Part shown: positions 26,301-61,276 of the stretch, in pieces
Numbering within the stretch: position 1 is the stretch's first letter
Layout of the letters: the number at the start of each line of letters is the position of its first letter
Source: an uncultured Acidobacteriota bacterium
GTDB taxonomy: Bacteria > Acidobacteriota > Terriglobia > Acidiferrales > UBA7541
Reading direction: 5' to 3'
DNA length: 64,000 bases
NCBI GenBank assembly: GCA_963838705.1
Contig: CAWIRU010000009.1
Coordinates: 737,921-801,920, forward strand
Notes under the pieces: model-generated
The model's database searches: none
The model's input: only the letters and a program-made list of their open reading frames with translations
What the model was told of the DNA's origin: nothing
Made by a program: the position numbers and the translations under genes

Positions 26301-26461
26301 GATCCCATACGATCGAGGGTCACAGTCGCAGCAGTGATTCCGGCACCCAAGGCGGCCATCGCAACGATGCCGCTCAACGCAATCGCCCACGCGCGACCTA
26401 GCGATCGCGCGCGCCGGCCTCCGCCACCTCTTTTATTCATCCCGGAAAAAAGCACGCCCAT
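23396..26461 (-). CDS. Large secreted BNR/Asp-box repeat beta-propeller protein with Ig-like (IPT/TIG) domains and an unusual C-terminal TM + lipobox-like + beta-strand tail
   Basis: Signal peptide. Repeated SxDxGxTW Asp-boxes (KTTDGVNW, SVDGGHTW, SVDGGTNW, SRDAGASW, SIDGGTTW, SVDGGNSW, SDHGATW). The C-terminus reads ...WMPVRARDRGLRRRFVLAACVAGIAFAGTLAGCGSGG...VTLIVQQTPP. Confidence 0.8.
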   Translation of the reverse strand: MGVLFSGMNKRGGGGRRARSLGRAWAIALSGIVAMAALGAGITAATVTLDRMGSFFAPREYPAGYIPAGAREHAIVQMRAMSAASGSDQPVWKSIGAISTTATNGSVASAPVRAVAIDPSDPSGKTVYVGAATGGVWKTTDGVNWIPLTDDQPSLAIRSLALDAATSPATLYAGTGARTAEGNSFYGAGVMKSVDGGHTWSTTGSAPFSSAANGGVSIEAITISPNPGTHRDVLAAVSGSVEATSGGAWRSVDGGTNWTPVLTAGAGIEGFDVAFDPNDRAGLTAYAALGSHESRVGACASSAPCGGLYVSRDAGASWKRLAGLDQAVAPAQIGRASLALGPQSAGKTILYAAIADAASSSRNLLAIFKSIDGGTTWTKLEAPANSLCSPACFNAMTLRASPADPSVVFAGGTGLARSVDGGNSWQDVTIDRTHAAIYPEQHSLAISRDGSVLYVGNDGGVWSSPDVANAGIAAGSHSWSNIKGNSSASSLSIAQLDSGLAAAAPPGRVVLGATSFPAALPPGLPNRIQTSSVFDPRDKQTIYATFSGFSGFNGDALGHVFMTASSGAQWSDISGNLPNIPANAVVVDPEIAGTLYIATDVGVFATSDHGATWSPLGAGLPIVPVTSLALQPASRVLTAGTFGRGEWELSLGGGTTFRLASLSPANAMAGAASFTLNVKGSGFTNQSTIRVNSTPLTPTTLRPDGSLSAIVPAGLLKAGGVTNVSVVDNGSVTNTLPLAVTNPVPTVSAISPTSITVGNGEFTLTVTGTNFVSGSVINFGNSSLTPIGNQSSTSLVAEVPTNAIATAAVLNVSVTNPSPGGGTSGTEAFDVQDYAYGPITPTTATVVGGFTAQFKIPVIALNGFNVPLTLTCSGLPANSVCSFSPTSITPTASGATETLLVSTESNSSVPVGGPGMGIPPGYRKYWPLIAAALVIALLMAWMPVRARDRGLRRRFVLAACVAGIAFAGTLAGCGSGGTGGTAVGTYQITISAAETTTSGTTTVTIANHQVMVTLIVQQTPP

Positions 26462-26646
26462 AATCCTCCGCCCGCCAATACCGCTGGGTTTCAGCCCGCG
26501 CGTGGGCCTCGCAGGCCGACACCGCTCGCAAGCGACACGCGATTATACACGCCCCGTTTCGCCCGAGAAATCGCAAACGACCGCACCCCTCGACGCAGCC
26601 GCTTTCGTGGATTTGATGGAGGACCGGCCCGCGCGGTTGTAAGACT

Positions 26647-26728
26647 CCGAGGCAGGGGCCTCGGGCTCTGAACGAAAGAGAGAACCTCGCAGCGTGTCTG
26701 TCAGAGCCGGGAGGCCCCTGCCTCCCGG
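26647..26728. repeat. Long inverted repeat between the two BNR genes. The arms are ccgaggcaggggcctcgggctctga and tcagagccgggaggcccctgcctcccgg, separated by about 30 bp. Single arms of the same about 28-bp element also occur at 38466-38494 and 47801-47834.
   Basis: Read directly. This is a candidate REP-like hairpin or bidirectional terminator. Confidence 0.6.
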
Positions 26729-26730
26729 TC

Positions 26731-29700
26731 CTAATTCACCGTGAGCGAAACCGTCGTGGTGTGGATAAGCGATCCAGACGTGCCTGTAATCGTGATGCTG
26801 TACTTGCCGGGCGGCGTCCCTGTCGACCCAGTGCTCCCACCACCACCGCCGCCTCCGCCGCAAGCCGAGAGCGTGGCCGTCAGAATCACGACCGCGAAAG
26901 CCATCTCGAGCGCAGCTCTCCTTCGCGTGGCGCCATTGCACACGAATAGCAGCAGCGCAAACGCGCCACAGGCAAAAATCCAAGTCGCAGCCGCCGTCGG
27001 CAGGCCCGGCGTCTGATGCGCAATGGGCGCCGGAATCGCGCTCCCATTCGGGGCCGTCGAGATCGCAATGGTTCCGGGAGCTGTCGGCGTCGCCGATCCG
27101 GTCCCGCACTGAGCCTTCAGCGGCACTCCGCCGCTACAAGCGAGCGAGACCGTGCCCGTAAATCCATTCAACGCGGTGATGGGAACGGTGTACGTAACCG
27201 AGCCTCCCGCCGTCACCGTCGCACTGGCCGGATTGCTCGTGATCGCGCCAAACGCGAAGTCCGGAGGCGGCGCGGTCACGGTGAAATTCAGGCTGTTCGA
27301 AGTTTGCCCGCCATCTGTCACTGTCACCGGAAACACGCCGGCGTTTGCCGTCATCGCCGCCGTCACCGTGCCGATGAGTTTCGTCGGCGCGCCCGAGGTA
27401 TCGGTTGCGAGCGCCGTCCCATTGAAATCCACCACCGAATTCGAAGTGAAGCTCACACCGTCCACCGTCAATTGCAATTGCCCCGAGCCCGCGGTCGTCG
27501 AATTCGGCGAAATCGTCGAAATCCTGAGCGGAGGCGCCGCCAGCGCAAATTCCCACGCGCCGCGCCCGTGCGTCGCCGCCAGCAGCAGCCGGTTCGACGC
27601 CTGAATCTTGATCGAGAGCACTTGATCGTTCGGCAATCCAGGCGCGAGCGTGCTCCAGTGCGCGCCGCCGTTCGTCGTGACGAAAACTCCAATGTCGGTC
27701 CCAGCGTAAAAAATGTTTTCTGGATCGCCGGGGTCAATCGCGAGTTCGTTCACCGGGCAGTTCGGCAAGTCGCCGTCAATGCTCGTCCACGAAGCTCCGC
27801 GGTTCGTGGTCACGAAAATATGTCCGGGCGTATCGCCAAATCCGGAAAATCCGGAGAACGTGATGTAGGCCGTCGTCGCGATCGTCGGGTCAACGGCGAT
27901 TTGGGTGATCGCTCGCGACGGAAGGCCCGTCGTCGCGTCCGTAAATGTCGCGGACGATCCGTTGAGCGCATTCGTCGTCGCGTGAACTTCCGCCAATCGC
28001 GATCCCGTATAAATCGTATTCGAATCGCTTGGCGCCACAGCCATCGCCGTAATGTAGTCAGTGGACGACCCGCTCTTCGTGAGGCTCGCCCCGCCGGCCA
28101 TCGCGGTCCAATTCGCGCCGCTCGCCTTCGATTGCCACAAACTCGTCGTCCCGAAATACGCATTCTGCGGCGAAGTAGGATCGAGAACGAACGGAGGAAT
28201 AAAATCGACGTTCGTGCTGAAATTGATTCCGCTGTCCGACGTGCTGAATGTGCTGCCGCTGTTCGTGCTCTTCCATATCGTTCCGTTGTTCCCCACCGCA
28301 TCGCATGCGAGAAAGACCGTAAACGAGCTCACGGTCACGGGCCCGATGGCCGTCCAGCCGCCGTCGCCGCATGTGCCTGGGTCGGACCACGCCGTGGTTC
28401 CGCTGTACCGCTCGCTGCCGTTATCCTGCGTTCCGCCAAAGATGATATTGGGATCGGCCGGGTGCGGCGCCATGCCCGGATAGAATTGCATCGTCTGCAA
28501 TCCGCTATTCAAATTCGTCCAGTGCTGCGATCCCGCGGCCGCCGTCATCGCGTCCGTCGAGCTCCAAACGCCGCCGTCGTTCCCGACGTACAACTTTAGT
28601 CCATCGGGCGAGAACGCGATCGCGTGGTGATCCACGTGAATCTGCGGATTCGACGTGCCGCCGGAATTGTTCGCCGAAACGTCGGCCCAGGACGCGCCGC
28701 CATCGGTCGAGCGAATCAGCGTCGGCTCCGGAACGCTTGCGCCCGAAATCGCATCCGCCGCACCGCCCGCAAATAGCACCTGCGGATTCCCCGGCTGAAT
28801 TGCAAGCGCCATGTCGTAGTAGCACTGCCCCGCGCTCGAGCCTCGGTCGCAGAACGGCTCCTGAGTCAGAATGCTCCACGTATCCCCCGCATTCGTGCTC
28901 TTCGCGAACGCCAGAAACCGGCTTGAACCTGTCGTCCCGTCCGCGATCGCCGCGAAAATTTCCGTGCTCGCGGGATTGCCCGTCTGCCCCGCAAGCGGGC
29001 TGCTCAATGCGATGCTGATTCGCCCGTACTTCGTATCCGAATTCGCGCCCAGCGCCGCGTTGATTGCCGTGTCGAGCCCCGCCAGGCGCGTCCACGTCAT
29101 TCCGCCGTCCTTCGATTTAAAAACGCCGTTGCACGGATCGGCCGTGCAATCTCCCGCCGCCACAAGCGCCGAATCGTTGTCCGGATAACCCATCGCGGCG
29201 TACGCCGTGCTTCCCGTCGAATCGTTCGCGTCAAACGCCACACCCGTCGCAATATCAATGGACGGGCTCGCCGGATTCTGCAGCGTCCAGTGCATCCCGC
29301 CGTCCATCGAGCGCCAAATCCCCCACGGAATCGCCGGCGTGCCATAAACGGCCGCAAGCATCACGCTGCTGTTCCCCGGCTGCACCGAGAGCGAACCAAT
29401 GTACGGCGCGGACATCGTCAGTCCCTGCGGCTGCCCCGCGCTGAATGTCTCGTCCGGCGTCCACGTGTTTCCCGAATCCGCCGAAATCAACACGCCCGTG
29501 CCGTAGAGGCTGTCGTACGCGAAATTTTCTTCGCCCGTGCCGTAAATTACCGTCGTCGCCGCGCAATTCGTCCCGGAATTGATCAGCGCAATTGAGCCGC
29601 TTGAAAGCGACGCCTGCGCGTCCGTCAGCGGCGCCCACGTGTTTCCGCCGTCGGCAGTTCGCCACACACCGCCATTTGCCGCGCCGATATACACGGTATT

Positions 29701-30120
29701 CCACGTCGGATCGCACGGGTCCACTGCAACCGCGTTCACGCGTCCTGACGTATTGCCGAACGGCGATTCATCGCTCAAAGGCTGAGGGCCAATCGGAGTC
29801 CATTTGGTGGGAGAAATGGAGATGCTGGCGCGCGCGATGCGGTCGGAGTAGGTGCCTTCGGCCCGAATCATCGCGTCGCGCTCGGCAATTGCCCGGATGC
29901 GCAATCTGCTCGGGACGTGCCCGTGAGCGGACGCGCGCGGCTCGAAAAACCACGCCTCTCGCTGCCGGATAAAGTTTACCGGTTCGTTTTCTTCGGATTC
30001 GGCGCCGCGTTCGAGGAATTGTCTGGCGACGACAGGCGCCACGGCGCTGAGCACCACCGCCGTGAATACGGAAAGGATAATCCATTCGCGAAGGCGCCGG
30101 CTCGCATCGCCGGTGTTCAT
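26731..30120 (-). CDS. Large secreted BNR/Asp-box repeat beta-propeller protein, a paralog of 23396-26461, with the same C-terminal tail architecture
   Basis: Asp-boxes TADGGNTW, SADSGNTW, SMDGGMHW, SKDGGMTW, STNAGDTW, STDGGASW, TTNRGASW, TTNGGAHW. C-terminus ...FACGAFALLLFVCNGATRRRAALEMAFAVVILTATLSACGGGGGGGGS...VSLTVN. Confidence 0.8.
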   Translation of the reverse strand: MNTGDASRRLREWIILSVFTAVVLSAVAPVVARQFLERGAESEENEPVNFIRQREAWFFEPRASAHGHVPSRLRIRAIAERDAMIRAEGTYSDRIARASISISPTKWTPIGPQPLSDESPFGNTSGRVNAVAVDPCDPTWNTVYIGAANGGVWRTADGGNTWAPLTDAQASLSSGSIALINSGTNCAATTVIYGTGEENFAYDSLYGTGVLISADSGNTWTPDETFSAGQPQGLTMSAPYIGSLSVQPGNSSVMLAAVYGTPAIPWGIWRSMDGGMHWTLQNPASPSIDIATGVAFDANDSTGSTAYAAMGYPDNDSALVAAGDCTADPCNGVFKSKDGGMTWTRLAGLDTAINAALGANSDTKYGRISIALSSPLAGQTGNPASTEIFAAIADGTTGSSRFLAFAKSTNAGDTWSILTQEPFCDRGSSAGQCYYDMALAIQPGNPQVLFAGGAADAISGASVPEPTLIRSTDGGASWADVSANNSGGTSNPQIHVDHHAIAFSPDGLKLYVGNDGGVWSSTDAMTAAAGSQHWTNLNSGLQTMQFYPGMAPHPADPNIIFGGTQDNGSERYSGTTAWSDPGTCGDGGWTAIGPVTVSSFTVFLACDAVGNNGTIWKSTNSGSTFSTSDSGINFSTNVDFIPPFVLDPTSPQNAYFGTTSLWQSKASGANWTAMAGGASLTKSGSSTDYITAMAVAPSDSNTIYTGSRLAEVHATTNALNGSSATFTDATTGLPSRAITQIAVDPTIATTAYITFSGFSGFGDTPGHIFVTTNRGASWTSIDGDLPNCPVNELAIDPGDPENIFYAGTDIGVFVTTNGGAHWSTLAPGLPNDQVLSIKIQASNRLLLAATHGRGAWEFALAAPPLRISTISPNSTTAGSGQLQLTVDGVSFTSNSVVDFNGTALATDTSGAPTKLIGTVTAAMTANAGVFPVTVTDGGQTSNSLNFTVTAPPPDFAFGAITSNPASATVTAGGSVTYTVPITALNGFTGTVSLACSGGVPLKAQCGTGSATPTAPGTIAISTAPNGSAIPAPIAHQTPGLPTAAATWIFACGAFALLLFVCNGATRRRAALEMAFAVVILTATLSACGGGGGGGGSTGSTGTPPGKYSITITGTSGSLIHTTTVSLTVN

Positions 30121-33137: not shown

Positions 33138-33599
33138 CTACTTAACCTGCAACGACTTGATATAGTTCACCAAACTGGATATCCGGACGTACATAATCCC
33201 TTGATCCGAATCCATTGACCTAAACAAGGGGCCCCACACCGGCATATCCGCGTCGCCGTGTGCCGGCGACTTCACGCCGTTCCGCAGCACAGTGGCCACA
33301 TAGCTGTCGGGAAATTTCCCGTCGTGCCGCTTCGCCAGCGTCGTCAAGTCCGCCGGTGCCTGTTTCAACGCCGACGCTGCCGGCCCGTCTCCCTTCGCAT
33401 CCGCGCCGTGGCACACCGCACAGTAGGCCTTGAACATGCTGGCGCCCGAAAGCGGCGCTGTCTGGTTGCTCGATTCCTTCTTCGCCTGCTTATCCTGTGC
33501 GAACGCAGTCTCGCCAAAACTCAATAGCATTCCGATCAACGTCACAATTCCAACGTGAAATCTGGTTCTCCGACTTTTCGCAAATTGCAGCATGGCCAA
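33138..33599 (-). CDS. Monoheme class I c-type cytochrome
   Basis: Signal peptide. Single CxxCH (CAVCHG). Distal Met region DADMPVWG. Confidence 0.8.
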   Translation of the reverse strand: MAMLQFAKSRRTRFHVGIVTLIGMLLSFGETAFAQDKQAKKESSNQTAPLSGASMFKAYCAVCHGADAKGDGPAASALKQAPADLTTLAKRHDGKFPDSYVATVLRNGVKSPAHGDADMPVWGPLFRSMDSDQGIMYVRISSLVNYIKSLQVK

Positions 33600-33815
33600 T
33601 CTCCCACCAATTCTTCCTGTTGTGTCTTTTGCAACTCCGCTCGGTGCCCCCGTCTATGACAGGAATCACTCGGGTATACGCCCGCGTCCCCTGCGCACTC
33701 ACCGTGTCCATTCGAGCACCCCAAGTGTCTCGACCACAGATTTCAAGTCCGCAAGACGCCTCAACATCGTGGGACGAATTGCACATCCACATCTACTACG
33801 CCGCTTTTTCACGAC

Positions 33816-34772
33816 CTATTTTTGCGGCGGGTAGAATGTGAGGTACATGTAGGCATCGGCGGCTTCGTCTGCGCTCAAGTAGCTGAACACCGGCATTCTG
33901 CCCCTGTAAAGCATCGGCGGAGTGCCCATCAGGATCGGCGCTCCAATCGTCACTTTTCGCACAAAATCCGGCATGCTCACCCGCGTCGTAAGTGTCCCGA
34001 GTGGCGGAATCGTCCCGTCCAGTATTTGCTGCGGACTCGGATTGGGACCGGTCGCGCTATGGCAAACGTGGCACGTAGATTTCACAATCCGCTCCCCCAC
34101 ACGGTGAGACGATTCCTTTACCGCAATCTGATTCTTTTCCGCCCCCGGTACGCCGGAAAGTTGTTCGAGGTAAGCGAGCAGCGAGCGAATCTCTGCCTCG
34201 CTCAAGCTGGGTGGCGGCATGCTTTCCCCTCCGTTGTGAAGCCGCTCCAGCAACAGAACTCTGGATTCTTTCGCCGTGGCGACCACATCCGCCCGGCTCA
34301 TCTCCCGCCCGGCCTTCTTCATTCGTGCCAACGTAAACTCAACAGATGTCGCCTGGACCGGGCCGATTACCGAGTTTATTTCCGGAGGAGCGCCGAGCCC
34401 CGACTCTCCGTGGCATCCCCGGCAATTCAGCCGATACAAGTCCGCGCCACGAAGTGTTACGAATTGCGCGCCAAAGCTCGGCGACAATTCCAATCGCCAA
34501 CGTGGCGCTTCTTCCCCGGGCACGGGTGGCGGCGGCCCCAATTCCCATGTCTTCCCCATGCTCGTCTCGTTGAACGGCCTGTTTAGCTGACCGAGCAAGC
34601 TCTCGCCTTCGACAGGCGTGACCGCATTATCGTCGCTCGCGCCGTGCGCCTGGCCCAACAGCGATGATGCGAGCAGGAAAATCGCTGCCAGGCTTATCAA
34701 CTGCGCCGTGCCACCATGCTTCCGGCCAAAGACGGCGCGAAACGCGCCGTCCAATGATCGAATTTCATGCAC
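33816..34772 (-). CDS. Diheme c-type cytochrome
   Basis: Signal peptide. Two CxxCH motifs (CRGCHG, CHVCHS). Confidence 0.8.
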   Translation of the reverse strand: MHEIRSLDGAFRAVFGRKHGGTAQLISLAAIFLLASSLLGQAHGASDDNAVTPVEGESLLGQLNRPFNETSMGKTWELGPPPPVPGEEAPRWRLELSPSFGAQFVTLRGADLYRLNCRGCHGESGLGAPPEINSVIGPVQATSVEFTLARMKKAGREMSRADVVATAKESRVLLLERLHNGGESMPPPSLSEAEIRSLLAYLEQLSGVPGAEKNQIAVKESSHRVGERIVKSTCHVCHSATGPNPSPQQILDGTIPPLGTLTTRVSMPDFVRKVTIGAPILMGTPPMLYRGRMPVFSYLSADEAADAYMYLTFYPPQK

Positions 34773-34837
34773 GGAATTTCGCCTTTCAGTCGCCTGAATT
34801 CGGGAACAATTTCACGCGCACGATCGCGCCCGCTTCG

Positions 34838-35446
34838 CTACTTCTTCACGACGAGCTCGACGTTGACCGCGCCGTCGGTAACGGTTATCTCCTGCGTTGT
34901 TGGTTTGCCGTCCTCGCTCCACGTTTTCAATGTGTACTTGCCGGCCGGCACATTTTTGATCTCAAAAGTGCCGCTGGGGCTAGTAAGAGCGAAGTAAGGC
35001 GTGGGGACCACCACAACGTAGCCAACCATCTCCGGATGCATATTACAGAGGAGTTGTGCCGTGCCGACGTCGTCGAATTCGAACGATTTTTTTTGTCCCG
35101 GAGATACGATAGTCAAATTATGCGCCAGTCTTTTATTCCCATTGATGGATGGCCAGTAGACGTTATGTGCGACTTTGTCGCTGTTCAGAAAATCCACTGT
35201 CGTTCCTCGCATCACAACTGTGACATGAGGCACGAAGTTCATATTTCGCTGATCCGCCGGCACGTGCTGCGCTGGCGCGTCAAATTTCTTTCCCGGCACG
35301 GCGTCAATGTAAACCGCAATGTTCTCTGCCGATTTCAATCCCTCCGTCGAAACCTTTCCCTTTACATCTCCTGCCCACGCGTTACTCGCAAAGAAAAACG
35401 CGCCGAAAAAAATGGCAATAAAAGCTGCTCGCCCGCAACGGATCAT
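34838..35446 (-). CDS. Secreted cupredoxin (amicyanin-like type-1 copper site) fused to a CarbopepD_reg-like beta-sandwich. Paralog of 57692-58417.
   Basis: Signal peptide MIRCGRAAFIAIFFGAFFFASNAWA. Cu ligands H (VAHNVYWP) and C-x2-H-x2-M (LCNMHPEM). C-terminal GTFEIKNVPAGKYTLKTW beta-sandwich. Start trimmed to M37 of the ORF. Confidence 0.65.
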   Translation of the reverse strand: MIRCGRAAFIAIFFGAFFFASNAWAGDVKGKVSTEGLKSAENIAVYIDAVPGKKFDAPAQHVPADQRNMNFVPHVTVVMRGTTVDFLNSDKVAHNVYWPSINGNKRLAHNLTIVSPGQKKSFEFDDVGTAQLLCNMHPEMVGYVVVVPTPYFALTSPSGTFEIKNVPAGKYTLKTWSEDGKPTTQEITVTDGAVNVELVVKK

Positions 35447-35621
35447 CCTGAATCTCCTCAAAGTTTTTTCAGGGCGCAATGGACCCCGAATTCTGGAAAC
35501 AATCCCGCGATACAGATGGAGGATGAACTCGCCGGCAAATCGGTGCCGTGACACGCGTCACGGCAAGTTGTGACAAGTGTCACACTTGCGGGGGCCGTCC
35601 CGGCATTCGACCGTGCGCCAG

Positions 35622-53511: not shown

Positions 53512-53847
53512 TTAGTCGTAGAGATGAATTTCGATTTCGTCGTTTTCTTCTGCGGAGGCGTCGGGCTCGGCGTTGGGCTCAGGCTGCTCGGCAAACGAAT
53601 TCCTGCGACTGTAGGCCAGCCCCATGATTCCGGCGAAGATCAGCATGGGCGGAAAGAGCATGATGAGAATGCCGTGGCGCAGGGCGGCGATTAGTTTCGC
53701 ACCGGACGAGGCCGCGCTCTGATAGCACATCGCGCAGCCTTGCGCGTAAAGGGCCGAAGGGCTCAAAAAAAGAACGCACAGCGACGAAACTCCTCGTGCG
53801 AGACTTCCGAGGCGGGACTGCTCGTGCCTGGCAGACTTGCTCTTCAT
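53512..53847 (-). CDS. Small membrane protein with a signal peptide, a CxxC motif (QGCAMCYQ), one TM helix and an acidic tail, located downstream of coxD
   Basis: Trimmed to the internal start MKSKSARHEQ. The longer ORF is antisense-overlapping and GC-driven. Confidence 0.4.
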   Translation of the reverse strand: MKSKSARHEQSRLGSLARGVSSLCVLFLSPSALYAQGCAMCYQSAASSGAKLIAALRHGILIMLFPPMLIFAGIMGLAYSRRNSFAEQPEPNAEPDASAEENDEIEIHLYD

Positions 53848-53924
53848 TTTCGAATTATCTATGTTTGAGCCGGCAAACACAAGCGCCAGTCCACCCACGC
53901 GCGTTGATTCAACCGTCTCGTCAG

Positions 53925-54224
53925 TTATTTCAGCAAGCTCATGCTCGCCATTCGAAACGCGTCCGGCCAGATATGGTCCATCATGAATAACACAAAAATC
54001 AGGATCGGTACCAAGGACCAGAACAGCTTCGAGTTTTCGTACTTGAGGTGCATGAAATACATCACACCGAGTCCGGCTTCGATGAATGCGAGGCCCAGAA
54101 GGTACACTAGGAGAGTGCGAGCGGGAGGGTGTTGAAGCGTCAGCACCACCTCGATTCCCACGATTACGAGAAGTCCGATCCAAATCGCGACGTCGAATTT
54201 CATGCCCGGCACTTGATTCGACAT
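53925..54224 (-). CDS. coxD: Cytochrome c oxidase subunit IV (bacterial CtaF/CoxD-like)
   Basis: About 99-aa three-TM protein directly downstream of subunit III (FDVAIWIGLLVIVGIEVVLTL). Confidence 0.6.
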   Translation of the reverse strand: MSNQVPGMKFDVAIWIGLLVIVGIEVVLTLQHPPARTLLVYLLGLAFIEAGLGVMYFMHLKYENSKLFWSLVPILIFVLFMMDHIWPDAFRMASMSLLK

Positions 54225-54257
54225 GACTGCTTCCTCCCCTTCTGGTCCAGCCTCACC

Positions 54258-54881
54258 TCAGCGGGTGTTCATAAGATAAAGCAACGGGAAGACGAACATC
54301 CAAACGATATCGACGAAGTGCCAGTAGAGTCCGGTGGTTTCGATATGGTTCGCGTCCAGCCGTTTGCTGCTATAGCCGAGGGCGATCACGGCGAGGGCGG
54401 CGACTCCGGAAATCACGTGCAGCAGGTGAAGCCCGGTGATGCCAAAAAAAGTCGCCCCAAATTGCGGATCCCCACCCATCGGATTCGAGTGCAGACCCCA
54501 GCCTTCATGAAACATCTTGAACCACTCGCGTATGTGGAGCGTGGCGAAAATCGCGCCGAGCAGCATAGTCATTCCGAGCCAGCGGAAGACCTTCGGCCTA
54601 TTATCGGCCTTCGCGGCCGCTACGGCGGCGAGCATCGTCAGGCTGCTCGTTAGTAGGATGAACGTCATGATCAATCCATTGACGAGGGTCGGCGAAAACT
54701 CGAACGGCGTGGTCCAGTTCAAGCTCCCGATTCGCAGAAAACCATATCCGAAAAGAAGTGCTGCAAACGTAACTGCGTCGGAGGCAATAAAAAGCCATAT
54801 CGTCAACTTTTTCGATTGAATGCCAAAGGGAGACGCTTCCATCAGGGCTCCGTGCCCTTCTCCCATCGTTGAATCGCTCAC
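54258..54881 (-). CDS. coxC: Cytochrome c oxidase subunit III
   Basis: TIWLFIASDAVTFAALLFGY and GITGLHLLHVISG...YWHFVDIVWMFVFPLLY are COX3 signatures. Confidence 0.85.
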   Translation of the reverse strand: MSDSTMGEGHGALMEASPFGIQSKKLTIWLFIASDAVTFAALLFGYGFLRIGSLNWTTPFEFSPTLVNGLIMTFILLTSSLTMLAAVAAAKADNRPKVFRWLGMTMLLGAIFATLHIREWFKMFHEGWGLHSNPMGGDPQFGATFFGITGLHLLHVISGVAALAVIALGYSSKRLDANHIETTGLYWHFVDIVWMFVFPLLYLMNTR

Positions 54882-54912
54882 GGCTCCTCCCTCAGTCTTC
54901 TCTTCCGAGATC

Positions 54913-56694
54913 CTAAGTCTTCTGCTCTACCTTTTCGGGCGACACCTGCATCTCGTAATCGCCACTGGAACCTTCCACGTCGTAGTCCATCGGGCCGTGG
55001 TAGACCGTAAGATGGCGCCCGCCGAAATTATCGAACGGCGGCGGCGAAGAGGTCGACCACTCGAGTGAGGTCGCTTCCCAAGGATTGTCCGACGCCTTCG
55101 GTCCCCAGAAACGCGAGTAGACCAAGTTGTACAGGAAAATAAATTGGGCCGCTCCGGTCAAAAGAGCGGCGATGGTGATGAACTTGTGAACCGGGATCAG
55201 CGGTATCAGGAAGTTATCGGTAAACGCCGCATACCGCCGGACATTACCGGCCAGTCCCAGATAATGCATCGGCATGAAGATGGCATAAACGCCGATAAAA
55301 GTTAGCCAGAAGTGCCATTTACCCAGCGTCTCGTTCATCATGCGGCCGAACATCTTCGGAGCCCAGAAGTAGGTGCCTGCAAAGATCGCGAAGATGGCCG
55401 CGACTGCCATCACGAAGTGGAAGTGAGCGACGACGAAATACGTCGCATGTAAGTAGATGTCAATGGAAGGCTGCGCCAGAAAGAATCCGCTGATGCCGCC
55501 GCTGATGAATACAGAGACGAAGCCAAGGCAGAAAAGCGCTGGCGTGGTAAATCGGATCCTGGCGCCATAAATCGAACCCAGCCACATGAGCGTAGCCACT
55601 GTCGCCGGAATTGTGATGAGCAGCGTCGGCACCGAAAACAACAGCGCCGAGAACGGATTCATGCCGCTCAGGAACATGTGATGTCCCCAAACCATGTAGC
55701 TCAAGAAGGCGATGGCGATCATGCAGCCGAGAAGCACGCGCGAGCCTCCGAGCAACGGCTTCCGCGTGAACGTCGGCAGAATGTGGGAAATGATTCCGAT
55801 GGCCGGCAGGATGGCGATGTAAACCTCCGGATGACCGAAGAACCAAAAGAGGTGCTGCCAAAGCAGCGGAGAGCCTCCCGAATGAGCCTGAAGATTATCG
55901 CTGACCACCAGGCCACCGGGAATGAAAAAGCTCGTCCCGGCAGTCTTATCAAGAATCAAGAGAATGCAGGCGGGAAGAAGAACGGCGAACGCGAGCAATC
56001 CTATGCAGGCCGTGACGAACCATGCCCACGTGGAGAGCGGCATCCGCATCAGCGTCATGCCCTTTGTGCGCAAGTCCAGCGTGGTGGAGATAAAATTGAG
56101 CGAACCGAGCAACTGTCCGATGCAAAAGATTCCGATGGCCGCCGCCCAGAGCGTCTGTCCGAGAGCCTGGCCGGGCCCGGCGTCCTTGCCAACGGCGCTC
56201 AGCGGCGCGTACGACGTCCAACCCGCGATCGGAGGGCCGTCGGCCACAAAGAACGCCGTGATCAGCACCAGGAACGCGACCAAAGTCACCCAGAACGACA
56301 TCATATTGAAGCGCGGGAACGCCATATCCTCCGCACCGATTTGAATGGGCAGGAAGTAGTTGCCGAACCCCGCGAACGGTGCATTCGTGAGGACGAAGAA
56401 CACCATGATGGTTCCATGCATCGTCATCAGCGACAGGTAGTATTCCGGCGTGACAACGCCGCCCGGCGCGCCGTTTGGCGACAGCTTATCGAGAAGTGGA
56501 ATCGCGAGCGTTGGCCATCCCAGATGGAGACGCATCAGCCAGGAGAGCACCATTCCGATAAACACGGCCACGAGCGCCAATCCGTAGTACTGCAGCCCGA
56601 TCACCTTATGGTCGAGGCTGAACACGTGTTTCCGGATGAAACTCGAAGGCGGTGTGAGGTGATGTACTGCGGCTTCCGACTGAATGTTATCCAT
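54913..56694 (-). CDS. coxA: Cytochrome c oxidase subunit I (heme-copper oxidase, A-family)
   Basis: WFFGHPEVYI, HHMF and GMPRR-type motifs. 12 TM helices. Confidence 0.9.
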   Translation of the reverse strand: MDNIQSEAAVHHLTPPSSFIRKHVFSLDHKVIGLQYYGLALVAVFIGMVLSWLMRLHLGWPTLAIPLLDKLSPNGAPGGVVTPEYYLSLMTMHGTIMVFFVLTNAPFAGFGNYFLPIQIGAEDMAFPRFNMMSFWVTLVAFLVLITAFFVADGPPIAGWTSYAPLSAVGKDAGPGQALGQTLWAAAIGIFCIGQLLGSLNFISTTLDLRTKGMTLMRMPLSTWAWFVTACIGLLAFAVLLPACILLILDKTAGTSFFIPGGLVVSDNLQAHSGGSPLLWQHLFWFFGHPEVYIAILPAIGIISHILPTFTRKPLLGGSRVLLGCMIAIAFLSYMVWGHHMFLSGMNPFSALLFSVPTLLITIPATVATLMWLGSIYGARIRFTTPALFCLGFVSVFISGGISGFFLAQPSIDIYLHATYFVVAHFHFVMAVAAIFAIFAGTYFWAPKMFGRMMNETLGKWHFWLTFIGVYAIFMPMHYLGLAGNVRRYAAFTDNFLIPLIPVHKFITIAALLTGAAQFIFLYNLVYSRFWGPKASDNPWEATSLEWSTSSPPPFDNFGGRHLTVYHGPMDYDVEGSSGDYEMQVSPEKVEQKT

Positions 56695-56781
56695 TTGCCG
56701 ACCTCGTAGAAAAGGTCTTCATGGCCAGCCGCGCACCTGCACGGCAGCGCACGAGCACAAAGTCTGCTGCTACTGCTACTG

Positions 56782-57579
56782 CTACTGCGACTGCGACTTC
56801 AGCCATTGATCAAATTGATCCTGCGGCAACACCTCGAGAAATGCCCTCATGCCGTAGTGCCCGAGGCCGCAGAGTTGGGTGCAAACGATTTCGAACTTTC
56901 CCGTTTTCGTCGCCGTGAAATGAATCGGAATATCGAGTCCGGGAACGATATCCTGCTGGACCCGGAGCTCCGGGACGTAGAAATTATGAATCATGTCTTT
57001 CGAATGCATCGTCAGCAAGATGGGTTTGTTGACCGGCACGGTCAGCGATCCGACAATGATGTCGTCCCGGGCGGCAACGTCGTTCGCGGGATCGAGACCG
57101 AAATAGTTGCCGTTTCCGTCGCTAATCTTGTCGGGATGAATCTGGCCGAATTGCCCATCCGGCCCGGGATAGCGGAAGTAAAAGGCAAACTGCTCGGCCT
57201 GCACATCCACATGAAGCGCGTCTGGGGGAGCGGGAACGAAATACACGTCCGCCCAGACTTTGGAGCCCACGAACGAAAGCGCCAAAATTTCCAGACCAAC
57301 GATAGCGATTCCCGCAACCACCAGCGGCGTCGAGCCGCCGGGAAAGTACTTGATCTTGCGCGGCGTCTTCGTGTCTCCGTACTGCCATGCGAAGATACCC
57401 AAAATGATCTGAGAAAGGACGAACAATATACCGGCCTCAACCATCGTTTCGTTGAGCTGATGATCGATGCGCTGGCCGAGTGCAGTGATCGGTTCAGGCG
57501 GCCACCAGGTATGCGCGACGATGAAGTAGGCTGAAACAAGCGTGATGATGATCACGACTACCGCAAAAAGTTTCCCCAT
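56782..57579 (-). CDS. coxB: Cytochrome c oxidase subunit II (CuA cupredoxin domain, no fused cytochrome c)
   Basis: CuA site H-x34-CTQLCGLGHYGM. Two N-terminal TM helices. Confidence 0.85.
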   Translation of the reverse strand: MGKLFAVVVIIITLVSAYFIVAHTWWPPEPITALGQRIDHQLNETMVEAGILFVLSQIILGIFAWQYGDTKTPRKIKYFPGGSTPLVVAGIAIVGLEILALSFVGSKVWADVYFVPAPPDALHVDVQAEQFAFYFRYPGPDGQFGQIHPDKISDGNGNYFGLDPANDVAARDDIIVGSLTVPVNKPILLTMHSKDMIHNFYVPELRVQQDIVPGLDIPIHFTATKTGKFEIVCTQLCGLGHYGMRAFLEVLPQDQFDQWLKSQSQ

Positions 57580-57691
57580 GACGTTTTCGGCCTCTCAGCG
57601 CCCACAAGTGCAACCACAGGACGGCCGTGAGAGTACGCCGCCTCCTTCATATCGAATACGCTGAACTTATCCGCCCGGGTGAAACGACGGC

Positions 57692-58417
57692 TCAATACAA
57701 GTACGGCGTCACCTTAAAGGAAAAATTGGCGGCTTTCGTCTCGCCCGCCGCTACCGTGACGTCCTGGTTCTGAAAGCCATACTGCTCTTGCCAGGCCGTG
57801 ACGGTGTATTTGCCCGGCGCGAGTCCGGTCAAGCTGAAAGAGCCGTCCTGACCGGTAATCGCGTAGTGCGGAGTCTTCAGCACGACGAAGTAGCCGTGCA
57901 TCCACGGATGGATGTTGCACTTCACTGGAATGAATTCAGCCTTATCCCACTTCGTGTCGATTGGGGGCGTCCCTGGGGGCTGTGATTTATTCCACTCCGA
58001 GTTTAGCTTCGGCATGGGATGGATGTTGTGGGCGACCGGGTCGTCGTTGGAGATGGTCAGCGGCTGACCCACTTCCATCGCGAGAACATGCGGCACGTAC
58101 GTGCAGCCCTTCTGGTCATATTTCACGCTTTGGGAAGGCGGCGTGGTTTCGTTGCCGGCGCCCGCCGAAATGTAAACCACCACGTATTGAAGAGCGTCCC
58201 CCGGGCCGGTCGTCACCGTCTGAACCAATTCGGGTGGGTTGTGTTCCTTGGCGCACACCGGCTCTTTCGACATGTCGATCGGCTTCATTTTCGGCGGGGT
58301 CCCCGTGTAGGTAACTTTGCCTTGGATGGTGGCTGTGCCTGCCGGCGGACCGGCAAGGACCACCATCGCGGAACCAGCAATAACTACCAATGCCAGACTA
58401 AGAAGATATTTGCGCAT
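57692..58417 (-). CDS. Secreted cupredoxin (amicyanin-like C-x2-H-x2-M type-1 Cu site) with a CarbopepD_reg-like C-terminal domain. It occupies the position of rusticyanin or ORF1 in a rus-like operon.
   Basis: Signal peptide. VAHNIHP (His ligand) and KCNIHPWMHGY (Cys/His/Met ligands). C-terminal GSFSLTGLAPGKYTVTAW beta-sandwich. Confidence 0.65.
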   Translation of the reverse strand: MRKYLLSLALVVIAGSAMVVLAGPPAGTATIQGKVTYTGTPPKMKPIDMSKEPVCAKEHNPPELVQTVTTGPGDALQYVVVYISAGAGNETTPPSQSVKYDQKGCTYVPHVLAMEVGQPLTISNDDPVAHNIHPMPKLNSEWNKSQPPGTPPIDTKWDKAEFIPVKCNIHPWMHGYFVVLKTPHYAITGQDGSFSLTGLAPGKYTVTAWQEQYGFQNQDVTVAAGETKAANFSFKVTPYLY

Positions 58418-58483
58418 GCAGCGCCTCCATCTCGTGTCAAAAAAATCGCGTGTTAGAAACCTCCAGCTGCGATTGTTCGATCC

Positions 58484-59404
58484 TTACTGTCCGGACCCTG
58501 GAGCCGCCTCGGGACCAATGGGCTTGAGCTCCTTGGGATGCTGTTGCAGCCATTGGTTAAAGGTTACGTATTCCGGCGGTTTCAGCGACGTCATTAGCGT
58601 TCTCAAGAAGTGAACGAGATCCCAGGCTTGGTCGGGCGTGATCACTCCGGCAAATGAGGGCATCGGAGACCCATCGAGGCCGGTCATGAAGATGCGGTAG
58701 AGGTCCGTGTTTGTCGTCCCGCACATGAACCGGTCGCCGGTGGCGAAGTTATACGGCTTGATAGGGAATCCTTTATCATCGGTGAGCGTTGATGCAGAGG
58801 GACCGTCGCCGCGACCTGCCGGCCCATGACATTTCCAGCACTCGTTCTTCTGGAAGAGTTCGCGACCGCGCAGAATGCTTTCGATTGTGGGCGGCGGCTC
58901 AGCCGGGATCTGAATCGGCGTGCCAGGCTTCTCCGTCTGCCATCTCGGCGAGAACGATTTGACCATCGCCACGAGATTCGCTCGCAGATCAGGTCCGAGC
59001 GGACGCCAAGACGGCATGTTGGTGGTGACAAAGCCGCGAGTGATCGCGTTGAACAAATCGTCATCCGTAGGCAGGGTACCAGTAGGAGTCGAGCGGCACT
59101 TGAAAATCGCCTCCGTGAAGTCACGGGGCTTGGGATCAATCCACTGCGCGTTTTCGCCAGTGCCGTCACCCATCGGGCCGTGGCATCCAACGCAGTAACG
59201 CCGGTAGAGTTGCGCTCCAGAATTGACAATTCCGTAAGCGTGTCCGGTCATGCCGTCGACGTGGCTCTGTTCCGTTGTCGTTACCGGCTGAATGTTATGG
59301 TCAATTTGCGCGAAGCAAGGAGTCCCGGCCGCGAGAAAGCAAAGCAAAGCCACGCCGGAGAAGAATGCCACCACTGTGTTTTTCATTCTCATTGGAGGCC
59401 TCAT
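58484..59404 (-). CDS. Diheme c-type cytochrome (c4/Cyc1-like by position)
   Basis: Signal peptide. Two CxxCH motifs (CVGCHGPMG, CWKCHGPAG). Confidence 0.8.
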   Translation of the reverse strand: MRPPMRMKNTVVAFFSGVALLCFLAAGTPCFAQIDHNIQPVTTTEQSHVDGMTGHAYGIVNSGAQLYRRYCVGCHGPMGDGTGENAQWIDPKPRDFTEAIFKCRSTPTGTLPTDDDLFNAITRGFVTTNMPSWRPLGPDLRANLVAMVKSFSPRWQTEKPGTPIQIPAEPPPTIESILRGRELFQKNECWKCHGPAGRGDGPSASTLTDDKGFPIKPYNFATGDRFMCGTTNTDLYRIFMTGLDGSPMPSFAGVITPDQAWDLVHFLRTLMTSLKPPEYVTFNQWLQQHPKELKPIGPEAAPGSGQ

Positions 59405-59407
59405 CCC

Positions 59408-60892
59408 TCAAAACGCAAAGTCAAATCCGATCATTAAACTGCTGCTCCACACCGGAGTGTTGCTGGGGTTTCCGCTGGGGGCGGGAGCAGGCGGCAAACC
59501 CACACCGTCCGCGCTAAGTGGAACGATGCCAATTGACTTCGTGATGGAGAATTCGTTGTGGAAAGCAAGACCCGCCCGGCTGAACATGATCGGGTACCAG
59601 CGATAGCCGACCGAGTAGGCGTCGATGTTCCCGAGATCGCTGGGATTCGTCGGAAGCGCTTGTGTCTGCATTCGGATCGCCTCGTAACGTCCGACAAACA
59701 CGAGTTGTGGGCTTTGGTAGTATTGCGCTTCGACGAACGCGCCATTCCACGATGGTGCCTGTGCTCCGGTTGGAAGCGTTCCGTTCGAAGGCGTTGACGT
59801 GCCCAGGAATACGTTGTCGTGAGCGTGCATGTAGAAGGGCATGATGTCGAGCTTGCCGATGTAGAATTCGGAAGCGACGCCGACACGATAGAACGGCTCG
59901 TTTCCGATTCCCACAAGCTGAACACCACTCGAAGTTTGGTAGTACGTCGGGCGCTGACCGGCGTAGACGAAGCCCTGGATCCTGGACGCCCCCATGCTGT
60001 CGTGGCCAACCTGAAACGCCTGATCGAAGGTTGCGTAAACGTCGTACGTACGTCCGATCGCGCCGCCGCCGCTCTCTACCGAATTCGTAAAACCCACGCC
60101 GCCCTCACTGCTGCTCAACACCGCAATCGAGTAGCGTGTATAGCTGTTGGCGTTGTGTCCCATCAATTCGATACCGGACTCGTTGTCTCCGAGTCCGAAG
60201 TTGTTCGAATCTCCGGGTGGAACAAAGTGATATGACTGGTAGAGTCCGCCGTTCCCAGAGAGGAACAGGAAGCGCTTCTCAGAAATTAACTCGTTGAGCT
60301 CGAAGTGTCCAAATTTCAGATTGAACCACGGGCTGCCCTTGAGGTTGTCGAAGCGGACGTAGGCATTCTCGAAGTGCCACGTCGCGGTCGAGTCGGTCGT
60401 CGGGAGAATCGACTCTGTAATGTTCTTGTAAAGAGTTCCCACCAACCAAAGGTCCATGCCGGACAAGTCGAACCCATGCTGGGTTACGTTGCCCGCAACA
60501 ATCGTACTTCCAGTCCCGCCGCCGGGGATCGAATCCACCTGCTGATTCGTCGTGTGCTCGAGGTGCCAGTTCGGCGTGATTCGAGCCGTTACGGGGAAAT
60601 AGGCGTTGTTCTGCCAAATGGGAGAATCGCGATCGTTCCCGATCTGATAGCCGCGATCCCGGAACGCGGTTCCAAAGTCATTCAGCTTCGGCCAAGCGGT
60701 GTGACACGCCGAGCAAGGCAATCCATACTTGCGGGCAAAAGCAGGCACTGCATTAATTCTGTGAATTGGCAACGTGTATGCCGGTTGGCTATCGCCCACG
60801 ATCAACGCGATCACAAGAAACGTAAACGCGAAGAACGAGCTGACCAACGACCAACGGATGTTCATCGTGCCTTTAAGAGACAACTTCACCAT
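59408..60892 (-). CDS. Cyc2-like fused monoheme cytochrome c / outer-membrane beta-barrel porin
   Basis: AGGAGG ribosome-binding site immediately upstream of the ATG at 60892. Signal peptide MVKLSLKGTMNIRWSLVSSFFAFTFLVIALIV. A single CxxCH close to the mature N-terminus (PAFARKYGLPCSACHTAWPKLNDFG) is followed by about 440 aa of alternating beta-strand pattern ending in an aromatic C-terminus (MIGFDFAF). This is the architecture of the Cyc2 iron-oxidase family. Confidence 0.6.
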   Translation of the reverse strand: MVKLSLKGTMNIRWSLVSSFFAFTFLVIALIVGDSQPAYTLPIHRINAVPAFARKYGLPCSACHTAWPKLNDFGTAFRDRGYQIGNDRDSPIWQNNAYFPVTARITPNWHLEHTTNQQVDSIPGGGTGSTIVAGNVTQHGFDLSGMDLWLVGTLYKNITESILPTTDSTATWHFENAYVRFDNLKGSPWFNLKFGHFELNELISEKRFLFLSGNGGLYQSYHFVPPGDSNNFGLGDNESGIELMGHNANSYTRYSIAVLSSSEGGVGFTNSVESGGGAIGRTYDVYATFDQAFQVGHDSMGASRIQGFVYAGQRPTYYQTSSGVQLVGIGNEPFYRVGVASEFYIGKLDIMPFYMHAHDNVFLGTSTPSNGTLPTGAQAPSWNGAFVEAQYYQSPQLVFVGRYEAIRMQTQALPTNPSDLGNIDAYSVGYRWYPIMFSRAGLAFHNEFSITKSIGIVPLSADGVGLPPAPAPSGNPSNTPVWSSSLMIGFDFAF

Positions 60893-61276
60893 GCTGCCTC
60901 CTGTTTGATCTGAAAACGCGAGAATAATTGTGCTGAGAGAATTTCGCCTGCGACGGGCGGGTAGAAAGAACATGAACACACGGCGAGGCAGGTGTGATGG
61001 TAGGACCAATTACAACTGGAATCGCTTTTCGTGAGCTGTGGTCTTGAGTCAAACACGGATCAAACCCTCTCCGCCCAGTGAGAGCAACCGTGTTACAAAA
61101 CTGCAAAATCGAGGAGGAACTTACTTCCGAAGCATTTCGAATGCAAGGAATTTTTTATGGATATCATCTTAAAGTCTACGTACTAGAACCTTTAGCGATG
61201 ACCCCAGGTCAGCCGCGACGCGGGAGCCACTTGCGAAAAACCCCGCTGGCATGCCACTCTTCAAGTCGCGCTGCGA

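Follow-up and report, generated by a model that had tools for sequence, protein, structure and literature searches.

From its sequence, an eight-gene operon of an uncultured Acidobacteriota bacterium seems on balance likely to form an electron path that runs from Fe2+ at the cell surface to O2; this Fe(II)-to-O2 chain, which I infer, is the best-supported mechanism for the operon. The operon lies in a stretch of 64,000 nucleotides (positions 737,921 to 801,920 of contig CAWIRU010000009.1, assembly GCA_963838705.1), which is called the window below. Eight collinear open reading frames (ORFs) on the minus strand span 53512-60892, all at the coordinates that a first-pass annotation of the DNA had given to a minus-strand gene cluster. 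Searches of Pfam and NCBIfam bear this cluster out, since COX2, COX1, COX3, COX4_pro and two cytochrome c domains were detected in it. In order of transcription, the features are as follows.

60893..61276, no strand: upstream non-coding region preceding the operon and a divergent SH3-domain gene; presumed promoter
59408..60892, minus strand: Cyc2-family protein, a fused monoheme cytochrome c and predicted 16-stranded outer-membrane porin, 494 aa
58484..59404, minus strand: periplasmic diheme cytochrome c of the Kustc0457 family, 306 aa (Pfam Cytochrome_CBB3 and Cytochrom_C; PDB 6h5l chain B)
57692..58417, minus strand: secreted two-domain type-1 copper protein, 241 aa (cupredoxin plus a transthyretin/CarboxypepD_reg-like beta-sandwich)
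56782..57579, minus strand: CoxB, oxidase subunit II with a CuA site and without a c-type heme domain (Pfam COX2, TIGR02866)
54913..56694, minus strand: CoxA, subunit I of an A-family haem-copper oxidase (Pfam COX1, E 3.5e-132)
54258..54881, minus strand: CoxC, short subunit III, 207 aa (Pfam COX3, E 1e-16)
53925..54224, minus strand: CoxD, prokaryotic subunit IV (Pfam COX4_pro, E 1.5e-10)
53512..53847, minus strand: conserved small protein, 111 aa, with a signal peptide, the motif AQGCAMCY, one transmembrane helix and an acidic tail

The porin-cytochrome, its carriers and the oxidase

The 494-aa product of the first gene gave no family match in Pfam, NCBIfam or PDB sequence searches, and neither Pfam nor NCBIfam holds a Cyc2 model. 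Thus, its membership in the Cyc2 family is judged by the published motif and by the fold. Keffer et al. (2021) describe Cyc2 proteins as having a signal peptide and one CxxCH. An AxPxFAR[Q/K][T/Y] motif, which they regard as unique to Cyc2, comes just before the CxxCH, and PxL follows four residues after it; the protein exceeds 365 aa and is fused to a 16-strand porin. All of the sequence features among these can be recognised in the 494-aa protein, whose N-terminal region reads AVPAFARKY-GLP-CSACH-TAW-PKL. The predicted signal peptide consists of an N-terminal basic stretch and a hydrophobic helix (residues 14-33 in the structural model described below). Directly after this helix comes the sole CxxCH, which is CSACH at residue 60. 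The upstream motif is present as AVPAFARKY, and the PxL motif is present as PKL after CSACH-TAW, with P68 and L70 invariant across the family alignment. The protein is longer than the 365 aa that are the least for a Cyc2 with a C-terminal 16-strand porin barrel, and such a barrel is predicted. Among 155 full-length relatives, the pattern PxFA[RK]x5CxxCH was found in 150, and all but one (154) have exactly one haem site.

An AlphaFold (AF2) model of the protein, built from 51 homologues (pLDDT 74, pTM 0.74), consists of a leader helix, a small helical haem domain and beta strands over residues 101-493. The chain ends in ...GFDFAF, a type of C-terminus that is typical of outer-membrane barrels. 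16-stranded porins are the best matches of the modelled barrel; OprP and PorB are among them, the same templates as those reported for Cyc2 and Cyt572. The first-pass annotation had read this ORF as a fused monoheme cytochrome and outer-membrane barrel, and had named the match to Cyc2 and the beta-barrel prediction beforehand as the points on which its reading could fall. Since the single CxxCH, the Cyc2-defining motif and a predicted porin-type barrel are all there, that reading stands as far as motif and fold can tell.

The second gene encodes a diheme cytochrome c of 306 aa, as had been annotated, with CVGCH at residue 71, CWKCH at residue 189 and one Pfam cytochrome c domain of each of the two kinds listed above. 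Among characterised proteins, its closest relative is chain B of PDB 6H5L (E 2.6e-59, 204 bits, residues 60-271), an entry for the HAO-like enzyme of Kuenenia stuttgartiensis. I infer that this chain is Kustc0457, a diheme cytochrome c that serves as a redox partner and extends the haem circuit of a 60-haem complex (PMC8042395). Judged by this homology, the diheme cytochrome of the operon would be a proven type of electron wire rather than a c4 cytochrome like Cyc1. A weak NCBIfam match to the cytochrome 579 of Leptospirillum (52.9 bits against a cut-off of 280) was attributed to generic class-I cytochrome similarity. This identity was rejected because the PDB match to Kustc0457 is far stronger.

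The third product, of 241 aa, is named "carboxypeptidase regulatory-like" at NCBI and "plastocyanin" at JGI. Its C-terminal 60 residues match Pfam CarboxypepD_reg. No Pfam cupredoxin model matched the protein at E <= 0.1, and phmmer matched it to the blue-copper protein 5fc9 with an E value of 0.0024. Across 47 homologues, the copper ligands H130, C167 and H170 are invariant and M173 is conserved in at least 90%, with an amicyanin-type loop CNIHPWM. Because of the invariant ligands and the cupredoxin fold matches, I rejected the reading as a CarboxypepD_reg protein alone; the sequence is that of a putative two-domain secreted blue-copper protein. Thus, the earlier label "amicyanin-like" fits the loop but misses the second domain, which is a transthyretin/CarboxypepD_reg-like beta-sandwich. 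N-terminal hydrophobic leaders were found on the Cyc2-like protein, the diheme cytochrome and the copper protein alike.

A paralogous cluster of three electron-carrier genes without a Cyc2 gene lies elsewhere in the window, at 33138-35554 on the minus strand.

34838-35554, minus strand: cupredoxin plus CarboxypepD_reg protein, 32.5% identical to the copper protein of the operon (Pfam Copper-bind, E 4.6e-8; loop CNMHPEM)
33816-34772, minus strand: cytochrome c, 318 aa, with two CxxCH
33138-33599, minus strand: monohaem cytochrome c, 153 aa

The annotated order coxB, coxA, coxC, coxD was confirmed by the Pfam and NCBIfam matches. CoxB has a CuA site (HNFYVP...CTQLCGLGHYGM) and no CxxCH. By these motifs, the enzyme should be of the aa3 rather than the caa3 type and should take electrons from cytochrome c rather than from quinol. 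Since CoxB has CuA but no haem c, it would need soluble donors. When CoxA was aligned to the CtaD of M. smegmatis and others, all haem and CuB ligands, the cross-linked Tyr, GHPEVY, HHMF, HFHF, and the Asp and Glu of the D channel were found to be present, and its matches in PDB (about 1e-110) are actinobacterial and Paracoccus aa3 oxidases. CoxBACD can be classified by sequence as an A-family cytochrome c oxidase of the aa3 type, with the haem type (A or O) not readable from the sequence.

The canonical K-pathway lysine of helix VIII is replaced by Ala in CoxA, where residues 362-371 read IPATVATLMW as against the canonical VPTGIKFFNW. The lysine is missing in all of about 58 cyc2-linked CoxA homologues (L002-L078), and also in the CoxA of the Acidithiobacillus ferrooxidans rus operon (L084 6845-8728), which has Ile. 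A second, unlinked oxidase in one of the related loci (L059 1976-3535) retains it. The presence of this second, canonical oxidase suggests that the cyc2-linked oxidase is specialised. As a separate observation, many relatives have two COX3-family genes between coxA and coxD. This was confirmed in L002 (15964-17226; 202 aa and 209 aa) and is deduced for other loci from a coxA-coxC spacing that is about 650 bp longer, while the window has one COX3 gene.

The last gene had been described as one for a small CxxC membrane protein. The AQGCAMCY motif and the one transmembrane helix agree with this description, and the start was corrected: ATG 53847 is the most likely one (111 aa). The listed ORF of 223 aa overlaps coxD. 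The protein had no Pfam or NCBIfam match. It carries the conserved pattern CxxCY...AL+xGIL...PP, and its gene lies downstream of coxD in 42 of the 80 related loci analysed below. It is possibly an accessory, assembly or copper-handling factor of the oxidase.

Conservation of the gene linkage and surroundings of the operon

Is this gene linkage common in other genomes? In a protein collection clustered at 90%, more than 4,200 relatives of the Cyc2-like protein were found, all unnamed or "hypothetical", and 1,839 relatives among 50%-identity representatives. The closest ones, with 81-86% identity, carry the label Candidatus Acidiferrales or Acidoferrales. When species were scanned with one genome each, at least 574 related stretches were obtained, and the gene layouts were taken from the best 80. 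These are mostly from Acidobacteriota and then Gemmatimonadota, with single bins of Chloroflexota, Limnocylindria, Eremiobacterota (Cybelea), Eisenbacteria and a Bacillota-labelled one. The layouts are distributed as follows.

56/80 loci: full cyc2 - diheme - cupredoxin - coxBACD order (42 of these with the small gene)
9/80 loci: collinear up to the contig end
3/80 loci: the same trio of cyc2, diheme cytochrome and cupredoxin genes, then a cbb3 oxidase
11/80 loci: trio or pair without an adjacent oxidase
1/80 loci: contig ends at cyc2

In the cbb3 variants (L019 12428-16021, also L010 and L062), the oxidase consists of CcoN and a fused FixO/dihaem cytochrome c subunit, and the cupredoxin keeps a Cys-x3-His-x2-Met loop. 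In distant relatives with 32-35% identity, the Cyc2-like, diheme cytochrome c, CarboxypepD_reg and/or COX genes are still found together in permuted orders. Examples with about 32% identity are L098 (2028-8830) and the P0191 contig, with permuted clusters such as COX1-COX3-COX4-two small ORFs-COX2-Cyc2-like-diheme c-CarboxypepD_reg; one of the permuted clusters in these two adjoins an SCO1/SenC copper chaperone gene. In another distant relative, two cytochrome genes flank the Cyc2-like gene after the cox cluster, and in one more, only a monohaem cytochrome c gene stands beside it. A cyc2 gene beside a monohaem cytochrome gene is an arrangement of neutrophilic iron oxidisers. The members of close and distant clusters alike are all named "hypothetical protein".

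The linkage has persisted through divergence and rearrangement and with two alternating kinds of O2 reductase, which is good evidence for a single function. The trio resembles a module through which electrons are fed into terminal oxidases. Tentatively, and with less confidence than for the operon itself, the trio may be regarded as a dedicated Fe(II)-uptake front end for a lysine-less aa3 or a cbb3 oxidase in hundreds of species of dominant soil phyla, namely Acidobacteriota and Gemmatimonadota, with single bins of others.

In the window itself, the stop of the cyc2-like gene (59408) and the start of the diheme cytochrome gene (59404) overlap by 4 nt, and the remaining intergenic gaps are 31-112 nt long, which fits a single operon. 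The strong ribosome-binding site claimed for the cluster is there, as AGGAGG at 60897-60902, 4 nt before ATG 60892, and homologues of the Cyc2-like protein align from residue 1 with this start. An AT-rich divergent promoter region had also been proposed upstream. The 384-bp region is only mildly AT-rich (GC content of 50% as against 58.6% in the window), and in a single patch of about 60 bp (about 61103-61192) the GC content falls to 32-38%. A scan of 60893-61276 found no sigma-70-like site, so the promoter is a presumed one. A scan for an intrinsic terminator 3' of the last gene found no clear one, and the folding of the 3' end has a z value of -1.5.

The flanking genes are unrelated to respiration; they encode SH3-domain proteins, a PEMT/ICMT-like methyltransferase and an AsmA-like protein. 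Neither ctaA nor ctaB was matched when the ORFs that flank the operon and the largest ones of the window were scanned with Pfam. At 23396-30120 on the minus strand, two very large neighbouring ORFs of 1021 and 1129 aa contain Sortilin-Vps10/BNR repeats; they are unrelated to the operon.

Proposed electron path and its alternatives

The protein identities, the domain make-up, the cofactor motifs, the modelled barrel fold and the evolutionary gene linkage are observed. On these, a path of three steps may be proposed, with an assumed substrate, carrier order, flow direction and conservation of energy. The Cyc2-type 16-stranded porin, with its single c-type haem at the periplasmic side, would oxidise a small reductant in solution, most probably Fe2+, once this has entered the pore. 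The electrons would then pass to the periplasmic Kustc0457-type diheme cytochrome c, to the secreted type-1 copper protein, or to both. Finally, these carriers would reduce the CuA centre of CoxB, and the A-family (aa3-type) oxidase would reduce O2 and conserve energy. Fe2+ is put forward as the substrate because of the homology to three tested Cyc2 proteins and because of the narrow single-haem architecture. The three tested homologues, one for each phylogenetic cluster of the family, are biochemically proven Fe(II) oxidases. In the heterotrophic Acidobacteriota of acidic, periodically reduced soils, the module would probably supplement organotrophy (lithoheterotrophy). Autotrophic growth on it is unlikely.

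Several points weigh against a path from Fe2+ to O2. The likeness to characterised Cyc2 proteins is confined to about 40 residues and the fold, and the haem domain of the AF2 model has low confidence (pLDDT 34-51). Acidobacteria homologues have been tied to Cyt572, which is a member of Cluster 3, the cluster whose functions are "most uncertain" according to the authors of the family. The missing K-pathway lysine means that the catalysis of this CoxA subfamily, as far as its sequence tells, should not be that of a textbook aa3 oxidase. A search from an Acidobacteriaceae-labelled homologue found only proteins derived from metagenome-assembled genomes and no cultured isolate. Furthermore, the order to which the closest relatives belong owes its name, Acidoferrales, to a potential for Fe cycling, mainly reduction (PMC7980381), and its named relatives are proposed as Fe(III) reducers rather than oxidisers.

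The operon may instead belong to general aerobic respiration, which I consider possible but rather unlikely. The diheme cytochrome and the cupredoxin would then shuttle electrons from a quinol-oxidising complex (bc or alternative complex III) to the oxidase, and the Cyc2-like protein would handle a soluble periplasmic or extracellular redox species other than Fe(II), such as reduced organic shuttles or Mn(II), or would have a role in sensing or related to reactive oxygen species. Cyc2 homologues do occur in many organisms that are not known for iron oxidation, where their function is explicitly unverified. The carriers belong to generic families, and the paralogous carrier cluster without Cyc2 at 33138-35554 indicates that such carriers also work outside a Cyc2 context; the trio itself lacks an adjacent oxidase in the 11 loci counted above. 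On the other hand, the linkage of the Cyc2-like protein to the carriers holds down to 32-35% identity despite the shuffling of gene order, and the alternation of aa3 and cbb3 partners fits an input module for O2 reductases. In addition, Fe(II) is oxidised by every family member that has been tested biochemically, and a small ion is favoured as the substrate by the narrowness of the 16-strand pore and its single haem.

A protective role would use the same path from Fe2+ to O2, with the benefit lying in limiting Fe2+ influx and Fenton damage in acidic soils of fluctuating redox state and with little contribution to growth. By sequence alone it is inseparable from an energy-conserving Fe(II)-to-O2 chain, and I rate it as improbable. 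The hosts appear organoheterotrophic, as the window has a glycoside hydrolase, central carbon metabolism and TonB-type genes, and no carbon-fixation or reverse-electron-flow (pet-like) genes were found near the operon within the window; these observations suit protection. However, a haem-copper oxidase of several subunits and with an intact D channel as the partner implies that energy is conserved, and the cbb3-linked variants suggest tuning to the O2 level as in respiratory chains. The reverse direction, in which the Cyc2-like protein would export electrons to Fe(III) or humic acceptors, draws on the Fe-reducing reputation of the order and on Acidobacteriaceae isolates that reduce Fe(III), but it is the least likely alternative and can be given very little credence, because O2 reductases (aa3 or cbb3) form the core of the operon, the cluster has no multihaem cytochromes, and insoluble acceptors are out of reach for high-potential carriers (type-1 copper, class-I c haems) and one haem inside a narrow barrel.

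It is known that Acidobacteriota carry Cyc2 homologues. Cyc2/Cyt572 homologues of Acidobacteria were noted in a sequence-similarity-network study (PMC10654088), and metagenomic surveys have reported cyc2 in Acidobacteriota and other unexpected phyla (PMC13594681; bioRxiv 10.1101/2020.08.06.239558). Thus, the statement of the first-pass annotation that the capacity may be undescribed for this lineage went too far. No paper on this particular operon was found: a literature search returned no description of the operon type, of the Kustc0457-like and two-domain copper carriers, of the cbb3-linked variant or of the lysine-less oxidase. Fe(II) oxidisers of acidic soils with fluctuating redox state are poorly known, and marker surveys count cyc2 hits of Acidobacteriota without telling what they mean. 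A cyc2-like gene in a conserved operon with carriers and an O2 reductase, across phyla and despite changes in gene order, gives such hits a concrete and testable mechanism. The operon is also a defined target of eight genes for metatranscriptomics, heterologous expression and the screening of isolates, while an A-family oxidase lineage that lacks the K-pathway lysine and recurs beside cyc2 is relevant to the oxidase mechanism. If the trio is indeed an Fe(II)-uptake front end in hundreds of soil species, "ordinary" soil heterotrophs that oxidise Fe(II) under aerobic or microaerobic conditions would account for a mainstream and overlooked sink of Fe(II) and O2 in acidic soils.

Comparison with known systems

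With the Cyc2/Cyt572 family (McAllister 2020; Keffer 2021), the 494-aa protein shares the signal peptide, the single CxxCH, the AxPxFAR[Q/K][T/Y] and PxL motifs, a length above 365 aa and a predicted 16-strand porin fold like OprP and PorB. It differs in its barrel, which cannot be aligned by sequence to that of A. ferrooxidans Cyc2.

In the diheme cytochrome, the homology to Kustc0457 (6H5L chain B) is strong over the whole two-haem core and includes both CxxCH sites. In contrast, the partner in anammox is an HAO-like nitrite reductase and not an oxidase, and the window protein has an extra N-terminal leader or linker of about 60 aa and a C-terminal tail of about 35 aa.

The copper protein shares the type-1 ligand set His...Cys-x2-His-x2-Met and the cupredoxin fold with amicyanin/plastocyanin-type cupredoxins, and it shares with AcoP the position between a cytochrome c gene and coxB. 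Unlike all of these, it is fused to a transthyretin-like domain, and its invariant residues include two more Cys (C55, C105) and three more His (H59, H110, H133). It also scores below the Pfam thresholds for cupredoxins.

As for neutrophilic iron oxidisers, I know of no case in which cyc2 lies in one operon with a terminal oxidase. The closest parallel in gene order is the rus operon, for which the first-pass annotation had claimed a complete counterpart in the window. According to the network study mentioned above, rus-like operons occur only in Acidithiobacillus, Acidiferrobacter and Acidihalobacter (PMC10654088). As the reference, an Acidithiobacillus rus operon from a metagenome (L084), retrieved with the exact rusticyanin sequence as the query, was compared by BLASTP. 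The likeness in order holds against L084: the gene types cyc2 - diheme c - cupredoxin - coxB - coxA - coxC - coxD follow each other on one strand in both (compare PMC10654088). The haem-domain motif of Cyc2 is homologous, and the linked CoxA proteins of both operons lack the K-pathway lysine.

The proteins themselves are distant. The alignment between the Cyc2-like protein and A. ferrooxidans Cyc2 is confined to the haem domain (44% identity in 39 aa, E 4e-8), as is that of the family profile in hhalign (probability of 95.5%, 42 columns), and barrel homology is not demonstrable by sequence. The diheme cytochrome is 25% identical to Cyc1 with an E value of 0.005, CoxB is 25% and CoxA 30% identical to the rus proteins, and no BLASTP match was found between the two CoxC proteins or between the window cupredoxin and Cup/AcoP or rusticyanin. 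Orthology to the rus operon was therefore not borne out. Nor is the module complete, because the window has no rus gene; a tblastn search of the whole window with rusticyanin gave nothing below E 0.78, and the small CxxC gene stands after coxD instead. Other differences lie in the diheme cytochrome (Kustc0457-like, not c4/Cyc1), in the cupredoxin (not similar to Cup/AcoP, with an amicyanin-type loop and a beta-sandwich as an additional domain) and in the hosts (soil Acidobacteriota and allies, not acidophilic Proteobacteria). Since only the haem domain of Cyc2 aligns, the carriers and the oxidase are distant and rusticyanin is lacking, the likeness is architectural rather than orthologous. As far as the sequences tell, the parallel with the rus operon is thus one of architecture and function class rather than of a transferred or orthologous operon.

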